This document shows, in pieces, positions 79 to 48,569 of a stretch of 64,000 nt of DNA. The first letter of the stretch is position 1. Every line of letters begins with the position of its first letter. Made by a program: the position numbers and the translations under genes. The notes below the pieces were generated by a model. The model had not been told where the DNA came from and made no database searches. It saw only the letters and a program-made list of their open reading frames with translations. Source of the DNA: a virus; IMG/VR virus record IMGVR_UViG_3300031673_000026, positions 4,007 through 68,006 of that record; one strand, given 5' to 3'.

Positions 79-1524
79 ATGAATATACTTCTCGACCTGG
101 CGCTTCCCGACGCGACTATTTACGTCGCAAAAATAAAAACAGAATATAACGGCCATCAGTATATCGATGACATAGTAAGCGTTTCGGAAATCGTGGACAA
201 CATGGGCTCTGCGAAAACATACGAATCCGGGGTAATTACAATTGTGATCAATGATATGTATGGAAAGTACCGCGATGTTATGGTATCCGACACCAATCAG
301 TACATTGCCAATATCACCGCTATACTCAGGAAAGAAGACGGTACGGTACTGGCAACGCAGGGCGTCAACACCTGGTCGTTTCAGGACGGAACCTGGACCC
401 TGAAATGCAACTCTCAAATCGACATGAATGCCGATATCACGGAAAAAATCAATACCACTACCTGGCCTGATGCTGCCGACGATGCGATTGGCGAGGTGGT
501 TCCGCAGGCATACAACACGATATTGGGGCTTAAGGCGTGGTTGGTGGACGATGTCGTCAATACTGGCGGGGAATGGCTGTTGAGCAGCAAGGAAATCAGC
601 ACTATCACCAAGGTTGTCGTCGCCGGAGAGACGATACTTCCCGCATATTATTCCTTACAAAGCGGCGGCGGCTATTGGTGGGTTAAAATGTCTCATGGGG
701 TGATTATGGGCAAGGCGGATTTCGCCATCGTGGATGTAACCACTCCCGCCTACACCCCGGTGGAGATAATCACCGCCCAACTGGCAGGGACCGTCACAGT
801 TGCCACAAACGCAGGGTTCAGCGCCCGGTTGGCCGCGCAGGGGTACACAGCAAGTAATTGTCGCTATTTACTCGACAGAACAATGAGCCCCGCTGCCGCA
901 CTCAAGGCCTTCTGTGAGAGTTTTGAATGTAACTATCGCCTCGATGCTTCCGGGGAAGTGATATTCAACTGGCTCAACCGCAGCACTATCAACCTGGCGG
1001 GGACGCTGCGGGAAGTCGATATCTTGACGGCAAAACAGTCGCAGGACTATAAGCCTGCGCAAATTAAGAACAGAATAAAAATTCACTATGATAGGAACTA
1101 CGTTGACGGCGGGTACACGTATTTCGAGACCTACGCAGGCGCAAGCCAATTAACCTGGGGCACCTTTGATGCTGAGATTGAATACGAATACCTGACGGAA
1201 ACAGTCCAGGCTAATGTGAGCGTTACGGAACTCTATTATCTGTGGGCTAACCCTCCGGCGACCTGGGAGATTACGACGACAATCGACACCGGGGAAGATT
1301 ACAATAATGGGGATTGGCTCCGGGTAAGTCACCCGCGATTCTTAACCCCGAACTCGTATTTCGTCCAGGTTATCAGGAAGGCAATCCAGGCGGACAATGA
1401 CATCATAACGTTTACCGTCAGGGATTATAATTATTTATCGAAAACGTTCTATCTAATCGATGAGCGGGGTTGGTTCCTGCTCGATGTGGATGGATACAGA
1501 ATCAAGGAGGTATACAATGGGTGA
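79..1524 (+). CDS. phage tail tip/baseplate hub-like structural protein
   Basis: 481 aa, beta-rich composition. Lies directly upstream of fibre-like genes; would follow the tape-measure gene in a circular genome. Confidence 0.6.
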   Translation: MNILLDLALPDATIYVAKIKTEYNGHQYIDDIVSVSEIVDNMGSAKTYESGVITIVINDMYGKYRDVMVSDTNQYIANITAILRKEDGTVLATQGVNTWSFQDGTWTLKCNSQIDMNADITEKINTTTWPDAADDAIGEVVPQAYNTILGLKAWLVDDVVNTGGEWLLSSKEISTITKVVVAGETILPAYYSLQSGGGYWWVKMSHGVIMGKADFAIVDVTTPAYTPVEIITAQLAGTVTVATNAGFSARLAAQGYTASNCRYLLDRTMSPAAALKAFCESFECNYRLDASGEVIFNWLNRSTINLAGTLREVDILTAKQSQDYKPAQIKNRIKIHYDRNYVDGGYTYFETYAGASQLTWGTFDAEIEYEYLTETVQANVSVTELYYLWANPPATWEITTTIDTGEDYNNGDWLRVSHPRFLTPNSYFVQVIRKAIQADNDIITFTVRDYNYLSKTFYLIDERGWFLLDVDGYRIKEVYNG

Positions 1525-3916: not shown

Positions 3917-4071
3917 AATTCCTTCCCCCTCTTGTCCAGGCAGCCCGTACAGCCCTGCATTCCGTATTCTGAGAACGTAGTCACCTTATTATATTCCACC
4001 CAGTTCACCACCGATTCCAGGACTTTGATTACTTCGTTTTCGGTCATTTCGTACCATTGCTGCTTATTCAT
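3913..4071 (-). pseudogene. truncated copy of the 5' end of gene 18151-18594
   Basis: First 37 codons nearly identical (MNKQQWYEMTENEVIKVLESVVNWVEYNKVTTFSEYG), then diverges and stops. Confidence 0.7.
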
Positions 4072-4303
4072 TTTACCACTCCCTTGATTTTTGGCCGGCA
4101 TAAGCAATACTAATCAATTCGTCGCCGTTGAAATTTTCTGAAAAATATCTTTGTATATAATCGACCAGCGCACGCGACCCTTCATCTTCTTTTATTTTTG
4201 TAGTTATTGGCTTGCACCCTAAACTACAATACATATATGCAACACCAAAGCCTTCGTGATTATAAGTGTAAGAAGCCTTATATATTCTCATCGTGTCCTC
4301 TTC

Positions 4304-4522
4304 TTAGTTCATGCGGAGGTCTTCATCAAGCAACCCCTCATCGATCAATTGATCGGACACGTCCGAAGCTATCTCGAAAAGCTCTTCGCTTACTTCGGAT
4401 CCCGCCACGGCTGCATAATTTTCCGCCATCGTCGTCAGGCATAGGATGCCGTCATCTTCCGTGACGCTATCTAGCCAATTTGCCAACATCCATCTTTTAG
4501 CTTCTATGTTCTTTTGTTTCAT
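4304..4522 (-). CDS. acidic hypothetical protein (paralogue of 4547-4768)
   Basis: Shared AKRWMLxNW...EExFxxxxxVxDxLI pattern; GGAGG RBS. Confidence 0.6.
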   Translation of the reverse strand: MKQKNIEAKRWMLANWLDSVTEDDGILCLTTMAENYAAVAGSEVSEELFEIASDVSDQLIDEGLLDEDLRMN

Positions 4523-4546
4523 TTTAAAACCTCCGTTTTTATGATT

Positions 4547-4768
4547 TCAATTTGCCCAAATATATAAGTCATACGCTATTAACTGTTTATTAATCAGTAT
4601 GTCCGCCACTTCGTTTCCCAGGTTGAACATTTCCTCATCTCTTTCAATGCCCATTACTTCGGCGCACGTGCTGCTTAAGTCATCGGGATTAAGATGGTCG
4701 GTATAGATGGAACCTTTCCAATTCTTTAACATCCACCTTTTAGCTTTTGCTACGTCTTTCTTTTTCAT
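4547..4768 (-). CDS. hypothetical early protein (first gene after promoter cassette 1)
   Basis: GGAGG RBS inside the repeated leader; paralogue of 4304-4522. Confidence 0.6.
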   Translation of the reverse strand: MKKKDVAKAKRWMLKNWKGSIYTDHLNPDDLSSTCAEVMGIERDEEMFNLGNEVADILINKQLIAYDLYIWAN

Positions 4769-4863
4769 ATTAACCTCCGTTTTATTTAATTTCAACTATC
4801 TATATAATAGCATCTTTTTTCTATTTTGTCAACTATTTCCCAAATAAAAATAAAAAAAGTTTT
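4769..4863 (-). promoter_or_regulatory. repeated early promoter/leader cassette, copy 1
   Basis: TTGACA(4832-4827)-17-TATTAT with TG extension, then GTTGAAATTAAATAAAACGGAGG leader. Confidence 0.85.
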
Positions 4864-5135
4864 GCTACCCTGCCAAACAGGCGATGGAACAGCCCGCCCT
4901 TGACCCTGCCCCCAGTCCCGAATTGATCGACACATGCCTGGCACCGCCTGGTATATAGCCCGCGTGCCCCTACCGCGACGGCACGCATGTGCTCTCCGTA
5001 TAGACCGCACCTTTCCCTGGCATCTATCGTTTGGCTAAAGTGATCACAGTTACACATGTCGCAATTTAACGGGTCATTGTCGGCAACTTCAATGCTGGCT
5101 TCGATTTGTTTTGTGATTCTCAATTTGCGCTCCAC
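4833..5135 (-). CDS. Cys-rich small protein (CxLY..RCxxC..FG family)
   Basis: CGLY...RRCQACVDQFG; start codon uncertain. Confidence 0.5.
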   Translation of the reverse strand: MERKLRITKQIEASIEVADNDPLNCDMCNCDHFSQTIDARERCGLYGEHMRAVAVGARGLYTRRCQACVDQFGTGGRVKGGLFHRLFGRVAKLFLFLFGK

Positions 5136-6332: not shown

Positions 6333-6746
6333 TTACACGACCCTATCCAGGGCCGCTTCCATTTCTTTTCTCGTACAATTATAGGGAACCTTTTCACCGT
6401 AGATAACTATCCAGTGCGGTTGATCAAGGCCCTTTTCGCGGACCCTCTCACCGTTCGGGAGAAACCCGCGTTCCCCAAGCCATTTCTCCGCCGCTTCCAG
6501 GTCGTAGAATACGCGGCCGTCCCTACCAGTTACGGCATGGTATCCGCCTTCCGGACGCATCGTAATCCCGGCGGTGTCGATTTTTTTGCCATCCGGTGTG
6601 AGTCCGCGGCGCTCCATCCACCGTTCCGCCCCGCGACGTGTTTTGAATACTTTCGATTGAGTTGCCGTCAGGGCTAAAAAGCTGCCCCTTTCCTCAATGA
6701 TGCCCACTACGTAGCTTTCGCCGTTTCCTAACTCATGCTTGGTCAT
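6333..6746 (-). CDS. DUF1391-like protein with tandem domain duplication
   Basis: ELGNGES..GI....FLALTATQSKVFKTRRGAERW resembles phage DUF1391; second internal repeat. Confidence 0.65.
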   Translation of the reverse strand: MTKHELGNGESYVVGIIEERGSFLALTATQSKVFKTRRGAERWMERRGLTPDGKKIDTAGITMRPEGGYHAVTGRDGRVFYDLEAAEKWLGERGFLPNGERVREKGLDQPHWIVIYGEKVPYNCTRKEMEAALDRVV

Positions 6747-6771: not shown

Positions 6772-7167
6772 TTACACAGCTTTATTTAAGGCCGCGTTAA
6801 GCTCTTCTCTCGTACAATTATAGGGTATTTTCTCCCCATAGATAACTATAAAGCATGGCTTGTATGTCCCGCTTTTCACTACCCGCCCGTATCCATTATC
6901 ACCAAGCCATGTCTCTGCCTCTTCAGGGTTCAAAAATGAACACCCGAACATATCGGTCGTGGTGGAATAGCCGCCATCTGCCAGCTTCGTAATCCCGGCG
7001 GTACTGATTTTTTTGCCATGAGCAGCGAACCCCCTACTTAGCAGCCAGGCAGTTGCCCCCTTAAGATCATTGAAACGCTTTGATTCGGTCGGTGACAGGG
7101 CCATGAATTGCCGCCCTATCTTGGTGATACCGACCGTATAGTATCTATCGGGCTTGTTTTCTTTCAT
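6772..7167 (-). CDS. DUF1391-like paralogue of 6333-6746
   Basis: Shared GKKIxTAGIT and IVIYGEKxPYNCTRxE blocks, also similar at DNA level. Confidence 0.65.
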   Translation of the reverse strand: MKENKPDRYYTVGITKIGRQFMALSPTESKRFNDLKGATAWLLSRGFAAHGKKISTAGITKLADGGYSTTTDMFGCSFLNPEEAETWLGDNGYGRVVKSGTYKPCFIVIYGEKIPYNCTREELNAALNKAV

Positions 7168-7262
7168 AATTACCTCCGTTTTTTATTTAATTTCAACTTC
7201 GGTATAATAATAGCATCTTTTTTCTATTTTGTCAACTAATTTCTTAAACTTTTTTTATTTTG
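7168..7262 (-). promoter_or_regulatory. repeated early promoter/leader cassette, copy 2
   Basis: TTGACA(7235-7230)-17-TATTAT plus the same leader and RBS. Confidence 0.85.
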
Positions 7263-7439
7263 TTCAAGAATCTACCAGCGGTCGCCGCTGCCTTATTAAT
7301 TCATAATCCGCCGCCTCATCGTGGCCAACATTATTATAGTAATCATCTGATACCGCCTCGTAATCTATCGCGTCCGGGTCACCGCCGGAGCGCCACACGT
7401 CATAAAATACATCGTTTTCGTAATCCCGCCTACTTTTTC

Positions 7440-8030
7440 TCATTGTTTTTCTCCTTCCGGTGCAGCTAAAACGTTCCGCCACACATTTTCGATTTTCTTA
7501 TATGTTTCATCGGCTCCCAATAGCACCGATAGTCTTTCCCTAACAATCTTTATCTGTTTAATAAGAATTAGCAGCCCCTGCCACAGCGGTTCGCTATATT
7601 CAAGGTAATGATCTTTTCCGTGGTGAGACGGGACGGAAAACGTGTCCTGGTTGACTCCATGCGGAGGATAGAAGTTCCGCGCCCACTTCTCCTTAGCCGC
7701 TACCTCCGGCGTTTCCCATGAGCATGCCTTCCAGCAACTCCCGGGGCGAGCAAGATAAAATCTATCAGCCGATACTCCAACGATCGGAGTTTGATCACTG
7801 CTGTGAGACGCCTCGTATTGCTCAACGTGGATGATCGGCACCCAATCCCATACCTCCTGCGCCTTTTGCGCAACCAATAAGTATAGGTCGTTGCATTTTT
7901 CCATCATTAACTCTTCACCATACACAGTCGCGATGAAATTATTATCATTGCGGTTGAAGAATATGGGGATTACGACACCGCTGTCCGTCGTGTAACTTGA
8001 ACATTGTTGGGGTTTAAGCTTTCTTGTCAT
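7440..8030 (-). CDS. hypothetical protein
   Basis: 196-aa ORF with GGAGG RBS in the leftward operon. Confidence 0.6.
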   Translation of the reverse strand: MTRKLKPQQCSSYTTDSGVVIPIFFNRNDNNFIATVYGEELMMEKCNDLYLLVAQKAQEVWDWVPIIHVEQYEASHSSDQTPIVGVSADRFYLARPGSCWKACSWETPEVAAKEKWARNFYPPHGVNQDTFSVPSHHGKDHYLEYSEPLWQGLLILIKQIKIVRERLSVLLGADETYKKIENVWRNVLAAPEGEKQ

Positions 8031-8049
8031 TATTTTCCTCCTTGCATTC

Positions 8050-8310
8050 TCATAATCTCATCTCCCGCATCGCTTCTGCGTCGTAATCCGGTGAATCCGG
8101 GTCCGCTTGATTATACAAGGCCATCCTGCACATCAATCTGTTAAGTTTCGGGTCGTTGATTTCTGCTGCCCGGTCTGCCACTCGACCTAACAGGATGCGA
8201 AGAACGTTGAGCGGTACACGAAATACTCCACCGAGACCTCCTGCGCCTGCGATTTCTTCAAGTAAGCACGGCACGTGAACCTTCCATTGTAGCTTTGCTT
8301 TTTCAATCAT
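8050..8310 (-). CDS. conserved-looking phage hypothetical protein
   Basis: GGAGG RBS; RAAEINDPKLNRLMCRMALY..ADPDSPDYD motif. Confidence 0.55.
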   Translation of the reverse strand: MIEKAKLQWKVHVPCLLEEIAGAGGLGGVFRVPLNVLRILLGRVADRAAEINDPKLNRLMCRMALYNQADPDSPDYDAEAMREMRL

Positions 8311-8514: not shown

Positions 8515-9108
8515 TCATGATCTACACGTCCACTGCATAGACATAGCCTTAGCCATCCCCGGAAACGTGCGGCTCCTATCCTTCTGGCTTCTCGCATCAA
8601 GTTGATACCATTTCGACCCGTTACTTTTTCCGTTTTTCCTGAAATACCTTTCTCCCTTATCAACAATTCTGGTTGACATCAGCGGCGGGAGTCCCTTGAG
8701 CCACAAGCAAGTTCGCTTACTGTAGCTGTCTCCAAAATCGAAAGGGTTAACTATCTGGTTGTAGTCAGGTAGCTGAGCGTACCTGTGAGGTACGGGATTC
8801 TCTATGCACACCATGGGCACGTGCCGCAAGTTATAGAAAATACGAAAAAACTTAACCGCCTCTTGCATCTTTCCCCACCTACCGGGGTCCTTATGGAGAT
8901 GCTGCACCCCTACATTCGCCAGGTAGGTACATGGCGGATGAGCTATGACCATATTCCAGCCGTCATGTAAAATATCCATCACATCACCCTGGTAGTGTTT
9001 CCCCTGCCCTTCGGACGGCAGCAAGTCGCAGGATGTCACGTCGTGACCAAGGGCACGAAACTCCCTGCCTACCGTGTCGGTGAACTCACACGCGATTAGG
9101 ATTTTCAA
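8515..9108 (-). CDS. short phage DNA cytosine methyltransferase-like protein
   Basis: KILIACE..., SCDL, AHPPCT (catalytic PC), IENP motifs of C5-MTase-like phage family. Confidence 0.75.
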   Translation of the reverse strand: MKILIACEFTDTVGREFRALGHDVTSCDLLPSEGQGKHYQGDVMDILHDGWNMVIAHPPCTYLANVGVQHLHKDPGRWGKMQEAVKFFRIFYNLRHVPMVCIENPVPHRYAQLPDYNQIVNPFDFGDSYSKRTCLWLKGLPPLMSTRIVDKGERYFRKNGKSNGSKWYQLDARSQKDRSRTFPGMAKAMSMQWTCRS

Positions 9109-9369: not shown

Positions 9370-9741
9370 CTAAATATCACTCTTCGTTACCCGGACCGAA
9401 AATGTGCAATTGCATGTCGGGGCCGTTACGATCCCCAGCTCTATCAGGTCTGAGAGCGCTTCGCTTATTTCCACACCGGAAATCGCCCCGGGAATCTCAG
9501 CCTCCGCAAAATAGTCAAAGACAACAACGCCATCGGCTGGAATCGGTGTCGGGAAATGCTCGATTCCAACCGCGTTACCTCTGAGAATGTGGTACGTTAC
9601 GCCACCGGTGGTAACGGAACAATCGCTGTCATCGTCGTGACCGAGAGCTGACAAGATCGCCTGCTGCCTCCTCCCTGCGGGACTACTCTTGGATAGTGGC
9701 GTGAATACCACCATTAGTATTAATCCGAATTTCTTTTTCAT
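9370..9741 (-). CDS. hypothetical protein
   Basis: AGGAGG RBS; short hydrophobic N-terminus. Confidence 0.5.
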   Translation of the reverse strand: MKKKFGLILMVVFTPLSKSSPAGRRQQAILSALGHDDDSDCSVTTGGVTYHILRGNAVGIEHFPTPIPADGVVVFDYFAEAEIPGAISGVEISEALSDLIELGIVTAPTCNCTFSVRVTKSDI

Positions 9742-9759
9742 ATTACCTCCTTATAAATT

Positions 9760-9832
9760 TGCCGGCGCAGGGAATCGAACCCCGAATCAATCGGTTATGA
9801 GCCGATAGCCTTAGCCGTTAGGCCACACCGGC
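9760..9832 (-). tRNA. tRNA with CAT anticodon (Met or Ile2), CCA not encoded
   Basis: Acceptor GCCGGTG/CGCCGGC, anticodon arm ATCGG-CTCATAA-CCGAT, T arm CGGGG-TTCGATT-CCCTG. Confidence 0.9.
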
Positions 9833-10360
9833 GGTATATTATATCATGATCTCCTGCCTGTCGATTAGACACTCGATCGCAGCCTTTAGTTCCGCCATTT
9901 TGCGCCTGCCCTTAGCGGACACTTTCATTTTTTCGATATCGGCATCCACATCGGCAAGGAATTTCCTCCAATCCGGCTGCGACAGTATGTACTTCCCACT
10001 TGCATTGAAGGTTCCAGGACACCCGCTATCAAGCCGCGTCAGGCAGCAATATATCGGCTCTTCCCTGTATTCACCGTATCCCACGCCAGGAGTATACGAG
10101 CCCTTATCGTAACCCTTGTGTAGACACTTGCGATACTTACATAGGCTATCACATTCAGGCGGGAGATTATCGAAATCATTCTTTTTCGGCATCGATATCC
10201 TCCTTCGAGCAATAATCACCTAACCTTACTATCCTCTGGAAAAATGCGTTGATAAGCAGTCCGTATGCTACCATTTCTTGATTAGCGTCCCCGCTCCTTT
10301 CGGCATGGCGGGGCATGGCGCAAACCCCATCTGCCATCTCAGTGGCTATTGTGGTGGTGG

Positions 10361-10573
10361 TCATGATTCCATCAGCTTTATCCCGGAATCCAACTCGAAT
10401 TCTGCCTTTCGATCAAATGCGAAAAGCATCATTTTTCTGGAAATTACTGCAACCGGAAACTGCTGTTCCAGCTCGATAATATACGCTGCCAACTCTTGCA
10501 ATCGCTTGTTCTCTGCCTTGTTCCTTACGTTACCCAGGAGCGTGGCAATTTTCTTAAATCTCGAATCTGTCAT
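10361..10573 (-). CDS. hypothetical protein
   Basis: GGAGG RBS before ATG 10573; downstream of leftward promoter. Confidence 0.55.
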   Translation of the reverse strand: MTDSRFKKIATLLGNVRNKAENKRLQELAAYIIELEQQFPVAVISRKMMLFAFDRKAEFELDSGIKLMES

Positions 10574-10670
10574 TTTGCCTCCAACAAAACGGCCGGTCAA
10601 GGCGGAAAAACCAAGGGAGGAGATCCCAAAAAACCGGCTCTCCCGGCCGCTAAGTAATTTGAACGTATAC

Positions 10671-10699
10671 AATATAGTATAAATTTGTTTAAATGTCAA
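10671..10699 (-). promoter_or_regulatory. leftward sigma70 promoter
   Basis: TTGACA-17-TATATT. Confidence 0.7.
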
Positions 10700-10746
10700 C
10701 AAAAAAATAAAAAAAGATTCCAGGGGGCCGATTGGGGCAAGTGGGT

Positions 10747-10817
10747 AAAAAAGGAAGGCGGGGCCCGTTAGGACCCCATGGAGTTGAAATCATATAAATT
10801 TGGAGGATTTGTATGAT
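10747..10817 (-). ncRNA. candidate antisense sRNA complementary to the repeated early leader/RBS
   Basis: Own promoter (TTGAAA 10852-10847, 17 nt, TATAAT 10829-10824); 5' hairpin with CCUCC loop; GC hairpin followed by U-tract. Confidence 0.55.
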
Positions 10818-10861
10818 GCTTATATTATACATCCATTTTCGGGCTTTTTCAACCGGGGCGG

Positions 10862-10957
10862 AAACTTTTTTTATTTTGTTTGAAAGAATAGTTGACAAAA
10901 TAGAAAAGTTATGCTATTATTATACCGAAGTTGAAATTAAATAAAACGGAGGTAATT
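10862..10957 (+). promoter_or_regulatory. repeated early promoter/leader cassette, copy 3
   Basis: TTGACA 10892-10897, TATTAT 10915-10920; 58-bp core identical to copy 4. Confidence 0.9.
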
Positions 10958-11713
10958 ATGAATAAAGAAACGTTGACAGTAAGGACGATGGATGGGCAAG
11001 AGGCGACCGTTCTTTTCGACGAATACAGGGACAGGGTCTTGCAAAAGAGGGGGCTCAAATGGTACGTGGAATTCAAGTACGATGAGGCCATCAAGCTGTT
11101 CACCGGGATTTCCGAAGCCTTTAAGGGAAAAGAAACCGCTGTCTTAATAGTAGAGCAAGATAAGGCTGCCCGGCTTGTCCGCGCCGAAAGGGAAAGGAAG
11201 GAAAGGGTCGTTGCCGAACTGGTTGAGGCCGGGCGGGTAGTTGGGTTTCACTATGAAATTGGCTGCGACTGCGGTGACAAGATTTACTTTGTCTATCACG
11301 ATGAAGAGGATGTCAGCTTTGACATTCTCTCTAAACGGTACAGAAGGGATGAGGGTTTAGCCGCTATGGTCGCCGACAAGTTACGCGCTGGCTGCGGAAT
11401 CGAAATGAATATCAACCCCGACCTGGGGAGCTACGGCGGATGGAAACTTACCGAAGCGCAGACCGCCTTGCTCATGGAAGCGGCCACCGAAGGCTTACAG
11501 GAAGAAGCTGAAATAAAAGAAAAAGAAAAGACCGAAGGAGAAGCGGCCACCGCCGCTATCTACCAGAAAGCCCAGGACACTGGTAAGCCGCAAGTATTGT
11601 CAATGTACTCCGAAGATTGCAATCGCCCTGACTATGCCTGCGACGTTGACAATATCGTTACTTACGCGATGCCGGATGGAAGCACATTCACGGAAAGAAT
11701 TCACTGCCATTGA
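10958..11713 (+). CDS. hypothetical early protein
   Basis: First gene after cassette 3; C-terminal C-x6-C...HCH putative metal site. Confidence 0.65.
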   Translation: MNKETLTVRTMDGQEATVLFDEYRDRVLQKRGLKWYVEFKYDEAIKLFTGISEAFKGKETAVLIVEQDKAARLVRAERERKERVVAELVEAGRVVGFHYEIGCDCGDKIYFVYHDEEDVSFDILSKRYRRDEGLAAMVADKLRAGCGIEMNINPDLGSYGGWKLTEAQTALLMEAATEGLQEEAEIKEKEKTEGEAATAAIYQKAQDTGKPQVLSMYSEDCNRPDYACDVDNIVTYAMPDGSTFTERIHCH

Positions 11714-13024: not shown

Positions 13025-13063
13025 ATTGTTGACAATTATGGGGGATTGATACATAATAGTGTC

Positions 13064-17092: not shown

Positions 17093-17150
17093 TATCAAGT
17101 AATTTCACCGTTCGACCGGGCGATGGAAACGTAGGTCACCACTCCGCGCA

Positions 17151-17248
17151 AAACTTTTTTTATTTTGTTTAAGAAATTAGTTGACAAAATAGAAAAGTTA
17201 TGCTATTATTATACCGAAGTTGAAATTAAATAAAAATTGGAGGATAAA
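17151..17248 (+). promoter_or_regulatory. repeated early promoter/leader cassette, copy 4
   Basis: TTGACA 17181-17186, TATTAT 17204-17209, same leader. Confidence 0.9.
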
Positions 17249-17542
17249 ATGACTTTAAAGAGGAAGCTGTACAAGAAGGACGGAACGTTTGTCAAGCTGG
17301 AAACACCACTCAATCTCATCAGCATAGACAAGATGAGCGACTGCAAGAACGTCGATGCCCCTATATTCGGTGACATCGATGAAAATACCGAAATCGCTAT
17401 CTACAAAATCGACGGGACGAATGATTACCTCGTTTCCATTGATTTTTACGGTGATGACGTTGACTATACAGACGATTCGATTGTGAGCGCTGACGAAAGA
17501 ACGGTGCTCATCGAAAAGTACAATTTAGGGAGGAAAAAATGA
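17249..17542 (+). CDS. acidic early protein
   Basis: GGAGG RBS; Asp-rich. Confidence 0.6.
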   Translation: MTLKRKLYKKDGTFVKLETPLNLISIDKMSDCKNVDAPIFGDIDENTEIAIYKIDGTNDYLVSIDFYGDDVDYTDDSIVSADERTVLIEKYNLGRKK

Positions 17543-18139: not shown

Positions 18140-18150
18140 CGGAGGATAAA

Positions 18151-18594
18151 ATGAGTAAGCAACAATGGTACAAGATGACCGAAAACGAAGTAATCAAAGT
18201 CCTGGAATCGGTGGTGAACTGGGTGGAATATAATAAGGTAACTACGTTCTCGGAATACGGAACGCAGGTAATTATCGAGACGGACGGAAGCGTCGAAACA
18301 ATGGGCTCCAATACCCGCCCGACGGATGATTACGCCGGTGATATCCTATATATGACCGACGTTATCGGGTACGGAAATATCGACCAGGATTACTACCTGG
18401 ACGGCTGGGGCGAAGTCATAGAGGATGGAGACTTTTTCTTAACCGACGATGGGAGAAAACTGGAGATAAAAGAGGCCATAGAAGAAGCCATCGAGGATGG
18501 AGATTTTACCGACGATATTCAGAAGGTAAAAGACCAGGCGCTTTTCGTCTGGAGCGAAGCTATGAGAAACTATCGCGAAGGCTTCGGGGAATAA
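18151..18594 (+). CDS. very acidic early protein (possible DNA mimic)
   Basis: GGAGG RBS; strongly D/E-rich. Confidence 0.6.
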   Translation: MSKQQWYKMTENEVIKVLESVVNWVEYNKVTTFSEYGTQVIIETDGSVETMGSNTRPTDDYAGDILYMTDVIGYGNIDQDYYLDGWGEVIEDGDFFLTDDGRKLEIKEAIEEAIEDGDFTDDIQKVKDQALFVWSEAMRNYREGFGE

Positions 18595-19118: not shown

Positions 19119-19523
19119 ATGACAATTGACAAATATATCAGAAGCGCAAACGCAGAGTACAGTCGCATAACCGCACTTAACGTTGCGGTATTAACGGCAC
19201 CGGGGCGATTCCGGTTAATTTCAGTCACACCGGAGGATGCAAGAAAAATATGGAAGGAAACCCCAATCAGGGAATCTGCCATAGGGCACGAGGCGACCGC
19301 GAAGGTAATGTCAACATTACTGGACGATGATATCCCCGTCAATCGGGTTAAATTCGTGCAGGAAGCCGGGGAAATAGTCATGGTGTTACAAATGCGGGAA
19401 CGCATCCCCGAAGGAACCGTATTGACAACCGTAGAAGAAATGGACGCCATCGGTTATGATTTTTTTCTCCTGTATATGGGGAAGGCAGATGGTCAAGCGG
19501 GTTGGCTGGAAAGGCACTGTTAA
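19119..19523 (+). CDS. acrIII-1: AcrIII-1 family ring nuclease (DUF1874/STIV B116/YddF-like)
   Basis: SAIGHEATA (catalytic His), IPVNR, RERIPEGTVLT..E motifs. Confidence 0.8.
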   Translation: MTIDKYIRSANAEYSRITALNVAVLTAPGRFRLISVTPEDARKIWKETPIRESAIGHEATAKVMSTLLDDDIPVNRVKFVQEAGEIVMVLQMRERIPEGTVLTTVEEMDAIGYDFFLLYMGKADGQAGWLERHC

Positions 19524-27392: not shown

Positions 27393-27421
27393 TTGAAAAA
27401 ATAGCAAAAATGTATTATAAT
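27393..27421 (+). promoter_or_regulatory. sigma70 promoter
   Basis: TTGAAA-17-TATAAT. Confidence 0.75.
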
Positions 27422-27438
27422 AGTAATATGAAAAACAA

Positions 27439-28132
27439 AATGATTGTCCAGGCAAATGCACTTATAAAATTCACGGATTCCCTCAGTTGCCGATCTGGAC
27501 AATCATTGCTGAGGGAGTCCCGTGAATAAGCAATCACTATCTTATGGCGTGGTTATTCCTTATGGAATAAGTTATCGGGTTCATGGCCGGGACGCAAGGT
27601 TATACCTTGCCCACGTCAACACCCAAAAAAAGAATAAGCAATCATACCATCTACAATCCAGAAATGGTCTCCCGGGAGGCGTAACATCAGACCTATTGCT
27701 GTCCCGGCGGACACCGTTAGTGCGAAACGGCTGTAGCGGCTTATTATTCTTACGTCTTCCAATAGGGGGCGTAGGGTTGCACTCTCAGGCCCGTACAAGT
27801 TACGATGTGGATGGTTACTTAAAGGAAGAGGCGGTAACGTCGAGACGACAGGTTGCAGGCTTGGCAACCTGCAACGGTCGGAGTAGGCACGTTTTAAGAA
27901 AGCCAATCGTAGTGCAGTTCTCTTTTCTCATTCCGGGGTGGAAGTCCCCGGGCTTCCTTTTAGTACTAATAATGGCGGAAGTTGTAGAATGCATTTCCTT
28001 AGCCGTGCGCGTGCCAGGTGGCAGGCATGGTCAACGGCGACATCAAGTAAGGAGTGTTCCACGGCAGCAAGGGTGGTTCCCGGTGGCGATTCTTTCGCTG
28101 CTGACGGTTCAATTCCGTCGCAGCCGCCTTTT
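27439..28132 (+). ncRNA. array of structured, partly tRNA-like RNAs / large ncRNA
   Basis: Consecutive multibranch folds; terminal T-arm GACGG-TTCAATT-CCGTC; the overlapping long ORF looks non-coding. Confidence 0.65.
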
Positions 28133-28468
28133 TATGAAATTTAACGGTAAGATATCATGACTAAAGAACTACTTAGAAAAGCACGGAAAGCACACATGTG
28201 CTATCGGTGCGAGTTTCCGATTATAAAAGGCAGCAGGTATTACGAGACTGTCGGCAGGTTCCCGTTGTACGATAAGGAAGAAGAGCAAATCGGCATTGAG
28301 TATTACCGTGAAAAGTGCTGTACTTTTTGTCACGACTTACCATCAGAAAAGCATGAGTGTGAGTGGATAACGGAAATCGATTATCAGGACTACGGGGCAC
28401 CCACAGGTTTTGAGTATTGCACGGTATGTTATACGAAAAGGGAAATACAATAATACAGGAGTAAAATA

Positions 28469-47228: not shown

Positions 47229-48569
47229 ATGAAAGATAATAACGATAACATCGACCTTATGCAAGTCAAGGAGATGTACGGAAAGGAATTCGCGGAGCTA
47301 ACCGAACGGGTAAGTCTGGCAGAGGCAGCGGTTGCGGCAGCAAAGAAACCGAAACCCGGAGAGGTAAAGGTCGCACGGGACTATGAAAATTGGGAAGATG
47401 ATCTTAATTCCAACCTGGGTGAGGGGCAGGATAAGGTTGATGCGATTAAGGCAATGGACGTGGGGGATATCAGGCTATCAGGCATCACAAGTGACAGGAT
47501 ACTTGCGATAACCGGCACCAAGCGACAAATTGTGGGGGAAGGCGCCGAAGCGGACGCGACACGGGAAATGTTCGGAAGGTTCAATAATTTTTCTGATATC
47601 CTCACGCAGGTAATAACACCGGCATTGAAGGGCGGAGCAGGCCATATAGAGCAGGTATGGGGCCTGGTAGATGGGAAATTTATATACGAAAATTTAATCC
47701 CCCGGTCCCCGGCAAAATTTAAATTTGATAAAGATAATAATACCTTACTCGTTACTGAGGATAACAGTGATGGGGCGAAGGTTGCCGATAATAAATTTCA
47801 GACACTAACTTACCGGTCCGAATTCGGAAACAAGTACGGCTTTGGGCTGTACGAGCAGGTGTACAAAATGTACGCTATGAAAAAGATTGTTTTCCCGTTC
47901 TGGGGTCAGGCGTGCGAGAAGAAATCAACCGGGGTAACGACCGTCGGGCTACCAGAAGGTGGTGTTAGTTCCGAAAACATGGGATTGCTCGAAGCGTTCA
48001 TCAAAGGAACTCGCGTCAATACAGGGGTTATACTCCCTTTCGGGATGACCGTCGATATCAAGCATATGACCGGAGACTTTTCAAGGGACTTTGAAATGTT
48101 TATTTCCGCTATTGATAAGGCATACGCCATCTTGATTTTAGGGCAAACACTCACTTCCGACATTGGAAACGTAGGCTCTAAGGCGGCCGCGACTGTTCAC
48201 AATAAGGTAAGACAGGACATACTAGCCGCGGACACCCTTTGGGTAGAAAACTATATCAACGATGGACTTATCATGCCTTACATTAATTTTAATTTTCCGA
48301 ACGTCAAGGAATATCCTAAGTGGCGGCTATCCGCGGAAGAAGGCGAAGACCTCGAAGCCCTGGCCAAGGTCCTGGATATCCTCACGAAATTGGGATTCAA
48401 GACGGTTCCCACTGAGTGGATACACGAAAAGTTTTCGATCCCTATCCCGGCAGACGGTTCGCCTGTTCTGGAATTACCCGGGGCGGGGGCCGCGCAGCCT
48501 GGAGAAAGTGGTACGAATCTGTGGGAAAACAGGGCGAAGTGGGTTAAGGCGCTTTATGAGATTGTTTAA
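47229..48569 (+). CDS. portal protein, DUF935/Mu gp29 family
   Basis: AILILGQTLTSD..GS.AAATVHNKVRQDI. Confidence 0.9.
   Translation: MKDNNDNIDLMQVKEMYGKEFAELTERVSLAEAAVAAAKKPKPGEVKVARDYENWEDDLNSNLGEGQDKVDAIKAMDVGDIRLSGITSDRILAITGTKRQIVGEGAEADATREMFGRFNNFSDILTQVITPALKGGAGHIEQVWGLVDGKFIYENLIPRSPAKFKFDKDNNTLLVTEDNSDGAKVADNKFQTLTYRSEFGNKYGFGLYEQVYKMYAMKKIVFPFWGQACEKKSTGVTTVGLPEGGVSSENMGLLEAFIKGTRVNTGVILPFGMTVDIKHMTGDFSRDFEMFISAIDKAYAILILGQTLTSDIGNVGSKAAATVHNKVRQDILAADTLWVENYINDGLIMPYINFNFPNVKEYPKWRLSAEEGEDLEALAKVLDILTKLGFKTVPTEWIHEKFSIPIPADGSPVLELPGAGAAQPGESGTNLWENRAKWVKALYEIV

Follow-up and report, generated by a model that had tools for sequence, protein, structure and literature searches.

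We describe a short element on the minus strand of a soil phage genome that looks like a self-contained candidate RNA gene (positions 10747-10852) and appears to be derived from its own presumed target, the 5' leader repeated in front of early genes of the same phage. The DNA analysed, here called the window, comprises the 64,000 nucleotides at bases 4007-68006 of the 68,006-nt IMG/VR virus record IMGVR_UViG_3300031673_000026 (rated 91% complete), and all positions are those of the window. That the unit is a real trans-acting antisense RNA directed against these leaders we judge, from the DNA, to be slightly short of an even bet (probability roughly 0.45).

The proposed mechanism would run as follows. 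A host sigma-A-type promoter, P_s, would start the RNA near 10817, and a hairpin and U-tract would end it near 10747. The first ~37 nt of the RNA would be the reverse complement of one copy of the 5' leader used on four strong early promoters. This 5' domain is predicted to be nearly unstructured, its stem being worth -2.7 kcal/mol and both the CCUCCAA loop and the UUCAAC linker being free, and could therefore pair with the mRNAs of the four promoter cassettes. The duplex would reach from nucleotide 2 of each mRNA past the Shine-Dalgarno sequence as far as the AUG, with 26-29 bp worth about -25 to -29 kcal/mol. With such a long duplex at the mRNA 5' end and 30S subunits kept from binding, the opening gene of every early operon would be translated less, and its message would probably be less stable. 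We computed the signals, the fold and the complementarity with its statistics; from these we infer that the unit is transcribed, where the RNA starts and stops, that it pairs in the cell and how it would change expression.

A predicted minus-strand transcription unit

The candidate unit is located in a 384-nt divergent gap between a leftward gene block, which spans 10573 to ~3009, and a rightward block that runs from 10958 onward. Its predicted parts, and the next promoter downstream, are the following.

10824-10852, minus strand: promoter P_s, TTGAAA (10852-10847), 17-nt spacer, TATAAT (10829-10824); 11/12 consensus
10747-10817, minus strand: predicted non-coding RNA of ~70 nt, a 5' antisense domain (nt 1-40) and then a terminator; from sequence and fold
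10789-10817, minus strand: weak 5' stem-loop (RNA nt 1-29; -2.7 kcal/mol, with a C.A mismatch); predicted fold
10806-10800, minus strand: anti-Shine-Dalgarno loop CCUCCAA of the 5' stem-loop; unpaired probability ~0.9 or more
10778-10788, minus strand: single-stranded linker UUCAACUCCAU, 11 nt; unpaired probability ~0.9 or more
10747-10778, minus strand: terminator, hairpin 10778-10759 (-14.5 kcal/mol) and then CCUUCCUUUUUU; from a strict hairpin-plus-T-tract scan
10671-10699, minus strand: P_L, TTGACA-17-TATATT, the next promoter downstream of P_s, driving the leftward operon that starts at 10573

The first-pass annotation, made from the letters of the window, had read a leftward near-consensus promoter TTGAAA-17-TATAAT at 10852-10824, and this is indeed present, with a predicted transcription start at ~10817 (-). 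Any promoter matching the consensus at 11/12 positions or better arises in 21/5000 dinucleotide shuffles of the 192-nt segment 10700-10891 (40% G+C). Counting both strands, the 64-kb window holds 10 such matches, P_s among them, whereas 50 first-order shuffles of it gave 1.14 on average and never more than 4. Besides P_s these are the four cassette promoters, P_L at 10699-10671, and sites at 13029, 27393, 45137 and 52279; since six of the remaining nine belong to the four cassettes, to P_L and to another apparent non-coding unit, strong matches seem mostly meaningful in this phage.

The RNA itself had been described as starting from about 10817 and carrying the CCUCCAA loop, a GC hairpin GGGGUCC-UAAC-GGGCCCC and a U-tract, and all of these are present in the sequence, the hairpin being followed in the 3' part by GCCUUCCUUUUUU. 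The predicted RNA has a minimum free energy of -17.3 kcal/mol (z -2.83), and 1/200 shuffles is equally stable. With a weak 5' stem, and with loop and linker ~90% or more unpaired, the antisense domain should be accessible. As to translation, the sole AUG in the transcript is without an upstream Shine-Dalgarno sequence, and no open reading frame (ORF) preceded by a ribosome binding site occurs on the minus strand of the unit. Rfam searches returned tRNA only for the whole window at gathering score, and chance-level matches only for 10300-11100 at E up to 10.

The strict terminator scan gave two sites in the whole window (128 kb of strand), one being that of the candidate unit, ~40 nt downstream of the predicted start and on the strand of P_s, and the other lying at 27932-27952. 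The stem holds a U.G pair on the minus strand where the plus strand has a C.A mismatch (-14.5 vs -10.9 kcal/mol), so the hairpin seems built for leftward transcription. We regard a short minus-strand transcription unit as supported by these signals and as the most economical reading of the DNA.

Predicted pairing with the repeated early leaders

The presumed targets are four ~100-nt promoter cassettes, each with an A/T tract, a TTGACA-17-TATTAT promoter with an upstream TG, and a leader. The cassette leader starts A(A/U)AGUUGAAAUUAAAUAAAA and runs via GGAGG to AUGA, with AGUUGAAAUUAAAUAAAA invariant in all four. Genes 4304-4522 and 19119-19523 are also preceded by related leaders.

4761-4865, minus strand: early cassette 1; predicted pairing site 4798-4764 (26 bp, -25.0 kcal/mol)
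7164-7270, minus strand: early cassette 2; predicted pairing site 7199-7163 (26 bp, -25.1 kcal/mol)
10862-10965, plus strand: early cassette 3, ahead of gene 10958-11713; predicted pairing site 10928-10962 (26 bp, -25.2 kcal/mol)
17148-17252, plus strand: early cassette 4; predicted pairing site 17217-17253 (29 bp, -28.8 kcal/mol)
4519-4552, minus strand: internal leader of the cassette-leader family, before gene 4304-4522; a possible fifth target (-22.1 kcal/mol)

Duplex energies of the 40-nt 5' domain were computed with 119 start regions, each taken from -35 to +20. The ORFs concerned are those among 148 called that have a Shine-Dalgarno-like motif and lie away from the window edge, with a spurious ORF within the locus excluded. 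The cassette start regions rank 2, 3, 4 and 5 of the 119 (-28.9, -25.3, -25.2 and -25.0 kcal/mol), the whole set having a mean of -14.4 kcal/mol (sd 4.6), and the internal leader of gene 4304-4522 ranks 8/119. When the domain was shuffled with CCUCC preserved, 0/200 shuffles attained the observed cassette mean or rank sum. The block complementarity to the four cassette leaders that the first-pass annotation had claimed is borne out by these duplexes: each pairs 26-29 bp, divided among four blocks that together span the mRNA from its 5' end as far as the start codon, namely UCAU(A) with (U)AUGA, CCUCC with GGAGG (extending to as many as 9 nt at 17237-17245), UUUAU with AUAAA, and 11 bp on the 5'-terminal AGUUGAAAUUA. 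This last block is made by the linker UUCAACUCCAU and the AU preceding it, which complement the 5'-terminal AGUUGAAAU of the cassette mRNAs in every cassette duplex. The two perfect matches singled out earlier are likewise exact, the 11-nt one at 4540-4550 (-), inside the internal leader segment 4523-4550, and the 9-nt one at 17237-17245 (+); taken alone they are insignificant, nine 11-mers and three 12-mers being common to the RNA complement and the window, mostly in the A-rich tail.

The full 73-nt RNA was further scanned against both strands in 70-nt windows taken every 15 nt, scoring the cofold energy minus the two self-folds (8526 windows, or 8516 without the self-antisense ones, merged into 1348 sites). 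The internal leader takes rank 28/1348, and it and the four cassettes are all within the top 3%.

The leader copy, a relative and the rival readings

Opposite the antisense domain lies a sequence that accounts for its complementarity.

10781-10817, plus strand: promoter-less diverged leader copy (GA)GTTGAAAT, CATATAAATTT, GGAGG, ATTTGT, ATGAT; template of the antisense domain

The copy has 3 mismatches to the 17-mer leader core, and the first 37 nt of the predicted RNA are its exact complement, so that the complementarity of the RNA to the leaders follows from homology. The homology to the cassettes is bounded by the leader 5' end and ATGA, which is exactly the span between predicted start and terminator; upstream of the copy no trace of a cassette promoter was found. 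The copy also has an 11-bp inverted repeat that is absent from the real leaders. It is conceivable, and in our view unlikely, that 10781-10817 is a decayed fifth cassette leader, that the promoter and terminator on the opposite strand are fortuitous and that nothing functional is made. The 3 mismatches to the 17-mer core, GGAGG and ATG kept at normal spacing, the equal frequency of terminator-like sites in shuffled sequence, and a conserved patch in the relative described below that is wider than the unit would all suit such a remnant. It squares poorly with a promoter of at least 11/12 in just 21/5000 local shuffles, and with the placing of one of only two strict terminators no more than 100 nt downstream of that promoter, for which the chance is ~0.001 (arithmetic from the shuffle mean of 1.7 terminators per window). 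A remnant should moreover retain upstream promoter homology, yet homology ends exactly at the leader 5' end, and the copy has gained the inverted repeat that real leaders lack. The first-pass annotation had itself allowed that 10783-10817 might be only a decayed plus-strand leader copy; a diverged leader copy it is, and the exact span, the gained inverted repeat and the lack of any plus-strand promoter of at least 9/12 in 9500-10891 speak against its being only that.

The same inverted repeat bears on two further readings, both of which we rate as highly improbable. In the first the plus strand is the functional one, and a hairpin with a looped Shine-Dalgarno sequence and the AUG in its stem controls a 43-codon ORF at 10813-10944; the minus-strand RNA might then act on it as a cis-antisense RNA, in the manner of P22 sar or of type I toxin-antitoxin systems. 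The hairpin is stronger on the plus strand (-8.7 kcal/mol, U.G replacing C.A), GGAGG stands 6 nt upstream of the ATG, and the ORF is intact in the relative, where the change at 10839 is synonymous. Against this, no plus-strand promoter of at least 9/12 was found in 9500-10891 and no credible plus-strand gene opposite the unit; the ORF crosses the cassette promoter in a frame that a second cassette copy also leaves open (ORF 4792-5010), so its openness is a property of the repeat. Its peptide has no uninterrupted hydrophobic helix, and two of the three differences in the relative that fall inside the ORF alter an amino acid. The idea of a type I toxin-antitoxin pair or small protein was rejected on the missing plus-strand promoter and the frame open in the other cassette copy. 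In the second, hardly credible to us, the repeat (10789-10799/10807-10817) would be a DNA operator through which a phage protein governs P_s or the cassette next to it. Its arms match as a palindrome at 10 of 11 positions around a 7-bp centre, and it follows shortly after the P_s -10 element; half-sites with at most 1 mismatch number 3 in the window, however, two being the palindrome arms themselves, against 4.1 expected, no HTH_3 protein was found in the record, and the repeat is in none of the four cassettes.

A metagenome scan gave a single relative, the 1492-nt contig L006. The RNA body is identical to it in 72/73 columns, the difference being a 1-nt deletion at 10757 that brings the U-run nearer the stem, the promoter in 34/35 columns (10839 T>C, in the spacer) and the A/T tract in 39/39. 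The 108-nt unit thus has 2 differences, whereas the adjacent rightward gene is identical at 523/584 positions (89.6%); the binomial probability of at most 2 differences in 108 nt at 10.4% divergence is 6.5e-4. Divergence from L006 is patchy, with 10 differences in 372 nt at 10696-11067 and 60 in 473 nt at 11068-11540. DNA contigs from two other soil runs, X2 and X3, carry the same four differences and are probably the same variant as L006, not independent support. A sharp mosaic breakpoint is seen at ~10696 (~640 in L006): to its right identity is 96-100% up to the cassette, and to its left 44-62%, where L006 has a TTGAAA-17-TATACT promoter, a different leader hairpin and a diverged 70-amino-acid first gene with a similar C-terminus. 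The X2 contigs show the same jump, from 10192 to 10696. The position of this breakpoint shows that the small unit travels together with the cassette on its right, separately from the leftward operon. Further searches added no relative: protein-guided scans of viral contigs with 9839-10219 (-), 10958-11710 (+) and the portal gene 47229-48566 gave none, and neither the cassette promoter nor the RNA 5' hairpin, each searched as an exact 29-mer, occurred in viral contigs. A gapped leader pattern gave 2 matches in viral contigs and a degenerate leader-copy pattern 1 match in genome contigs, in a Bacteroidota metagenome-assembled genome; all three proved unrelated on inspection.

Several of these results weigh against an antisense RNA dedicated to the leaders. 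The complementarity is automatic, given that the region is a leader copy. The best duplex, rank 1/119, is formed with the start region of gene 7440-8030 (-29.9 kcal/mol), and in the cofold scan the cassettes take ranks 2, 12, 24 and 36 of 1348, with many other GGAGG-bearing starts among them. CCUCC pairs with every strong Shine-Dalgarno sequence of the phage, and specificity therefore rests on the AU-rich flanking blocks. The 5' hairpin is more stable on the plus strand (-8.7 vs -2.7 kcal/mol), and the U-run is offset 3-4 nt from the terminator stem, so that termination may be leaky. Strict terminators are not enriched genome-wide, 2 being found against a mean of 1.7 in ten shuffled windows; the improbable feature is the position of this one, 40 nt past a top-ranked promoter on the same strand. 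The low-divergence tract includes the first 110 nt of the next gene and may therefore reflect recent recombination instead of selection on the RNA, and the sole relative, L006, has practically the same RNA body and the same adjacent leader. By these ranks the leaders would thus be preferred targets, not exclusive ones. Of the earlier claim that one small RNA (sRNA) could silence several early operons, the complementarity to all four leaders stands; the expectation that these would rank top genome-wide holds for ranks 2-5 of 119 only, gene 7440-8030 pairing better and the cofold ranks being scattered, so the leaders are not uniquely top. The best partner, at 8012-8066 (-), pairs over 28 bp with several G.U pairs and is outside the leader family.

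To the reading that the unit is transcribed and yet not leader-specific we assign a small share of the probability. It could be a tandem promoter upstream of P_L that feeds the leftward operon past a leaky attenuator, an insulator keeping divergent transcription off P_L, or an RNA that acts elsewhere, for instance on host mRNAs or as a primer near a replication origin. P_s and P_L stand in tandem, 153 nt apart, with the end of the small unit ~48 nt ahead of P_L, and L006 also has a promoter at the P_L position. The U-tract stands apart from the stem, making read-through plausible, and several non-cassette start regions equal the cassettes in the cofold scan. The 5' untranslated region (UTR) of the leftward operon has, in both phages, a hairpin with a CUCCUCC loop and U-rich sequence, and structured leaders that resemble terminators seem to be a regional theme. 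The breakpoint at ~10696 falls between terminator and P_L, however, and the unit goes with the right-hand cassette. The antisense span, moreover, equals the leader end to end, which would be needless for an insulator or attenuator, and the terminator hairpin is strong (-14.5 kcal/mol).

The leftward 5' UTR deserves description in its own right. At 10574-10664 (-) a long GC-rich hairpin with an apical CUCCUCC loop is followed by U-rich sequence before the Shine-Dalgarno sequence, and L006 has the same architecture at 515-612 (-) in largely different sequence; the hairpins fold at -35.8 kcal/mol (z -1.66) in the window and -38.2 kcal/mol (z -3.82) in L006. It is a second CCUCC-displaying RNA element adjoining the candidate sRNA, and may serve for attenuation, for stabilising the 5' end or as an anti-Shine-Dalgarno element in cis.

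Phage context and known regulators

The phage is uncultured and an orphan. Blastn of 10300-11300 against 50,697 deposited phages gave no nucleotide match, and tblastn of a 534-amino-acid head protein against phages gave a best identity below 30%. From PHROG matches we recognise a portal, a terminase-like protein, a minor head protein and a DnaD-like loader; among the early genes around the locus, the DNA methyltransferase at 8515-9108 is alone in having an informative family. Phage_integrase, Resolvase and HTH_3 had zero matches in the 68-kb record (91% complete), and the phage therefore looks virulent; its host is probably a Bacillota-like soil bacterium. A virulent phage needs no immunity repressor, so the first-pass comparison with an RNA-only repressor of the P1 C4 or P4 CI kind, in a phage without CI, is a misfit. 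Since P_s is of the same host type as the target promoters and lysogeny genes are absent, the antisense RNA would be a damper or an accumulating timer instead of a lysogenic repressor.

The early region holds other features and repeats.

9760-9832, minus strand: tRNA-Met gene (anticodon CAT), inside the leftward early operon

A 122-nt inverted repeat (94% complementary, at 3954-4075 and 18147-18268) flanks the 14-kb early region with all four cassettes, and contigs of soil runs X1 and X2 connect its two copies on opposite strands; the repeat could be the mark of an invertible segment, paralogous gene starts or assembly ambiguity. Two adjacent paralogous genes at 6333-6746 and 6772-7167 (-), of 137 and 131 amino acids, share 78 nt at their 3' ends (76% identical), and gene 6772-7167 (-) is the first behind cassette 2. 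Summed contig depth in the cassette bins 6802-7268 and 10538-11004 far exceeds that of their neighbours in soil runs X2 (86 vs ~7) and X3 (25 vs ~2), from which the cassette seems common to many related elements there; run X2 also carries a variant leader behind 10922.

Elsewhere, 27393-28135 (+) looks like a long non-coding RNA, judging from its signals and fold. It starts with the window's only other TTGAAA-17-TATAAT promoter (27393-27421), after which ~740 nt have no credible ORF, and 27428-27962 folds at -187 kcal/mol against -156 +/- 6 in shuffles (z -4.98). The second of the two strict terminators (27932-27952) also lies in it, with a CUUCCUUUU tail similar to the one on the small RNA. 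Within the last ~115 nt of the region are a GGTTCAATTCC resembling a T-arm and a tRNA-Sec-like match that is weak (18.5 bits, E 0.27). Searches of this region gave no Rfam family, no ARAGORN prediction and no blastn match among phages.

Among known regulators, c4 of P1/P7 is a 77-nt phage antisense RNA that blocks translation by pairing, through sequences exposed in its loops, around a ribosome binding site. It acts at more than one site complementary to it, is found in temperate phages and, as part of immunity, governs only the antirepressor gene ant (PMC12197685). The candidate resembles c4 in being a small phage RNA with loop-exposed anti-ribosome-binding-site sequences (here predicted) and multiple sites; it differs in having its own promoter, no lysogeny genes and four dispersed operons as targets. 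No c4- or CI-type Rfam family matched at E up to 10 in 10300-11100 or at gathering score in the window. c4 is processed out of the transcript it controls, while the candidate has a promoter of its own; for this reason, and for want of an Rfam match and of a temperate context, we do not place it in the c4/CI family. P4 CI is an RNA-only regulator whose sequence is repeated, inverted, in the transcripts it controls; in its satellite prophage it works by ending transcription prematurely, and it is cleaved out of the leader under its control, whereas the candidate would act from a separate gene on the ribosome binding site of finished 5' leaders.

P22 sar RNA (68/69 nt) and lambda OOP RNA (77 nt) are of similar length, and sar pairs with the translation start of its target (PMC12197685). 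Size and the layout of a mini-gene made of promoter and terminator are shared with the candidate. Both sar and OOP are transcribed opposite the gene they control; here, in contrast, the opposite strand has neither promoter nor gene, and the presumed targets are spread over both strands at distances of 0.1 to 6.4 kb. As that strand is silent by every signal tested, the RNA would not be a cis-antisense RNA.

RsaE/RoxS are sRNAs of Bacillota that have their own promoter and an intrinsic terminator, and an exposed C-rich loop of theirs pairs with the G-rich Shine-Dalgarno sequences of several mRNAs. They are chromosomal and act through short seeds on metabolic regulons, whereas the candidate is phage-borne, would pair over a whole 5' UTR (26-29 bp) and evidently originated from the very sequence it is presumed to target. 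The T4 endoribonuclease RegB shuts off many early messages via the Shine-Dalgarno region; the functional goal would be the same, except that RegB acts as a protein nuclease and the candidate would act as RNA. To our knowledge, early-gene shut-off in virulent phages is, where understood, protein-based, through repressors, sigma or anti-sigma factors, or nucleases such as RegB, and the phage antisense RNAs we know of (c4, CI, sar, OOP) serve one gene each in temperate phages. A full-text literature search found no paper on a phage sRNA aimed at a repeated early leader.

Beyond the existence of an antisense RNA, a fuller picture may be drawn, which we hold to be rather doubtful: a virulent phage would have inverted a copy of its own early leader and set it between a host-type promoter and a terminator, and the resulting RNA of ~70 nt would be a single trans switch that pairs end to end with the leaders of four dispersed early operons and shuts them. 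The extension of this switch to one or two related internal leaders, as an early shut-off by RNA only, is to be read with the same reserve. Should the unit prove inert, it would be a caution that a stray repeat copy automatically gives antisense complementarity to its repeat family. If the antisense reading is true, a whole early regulon would be controlled via its shared, repeated leader by an RNA visibly derived from that leader. The design would be simple and evolvable, needing the target to be copied and inverted and a promoter and a terminator to be added, and the locus would provide a clean model for the origin of an sRNA gene.

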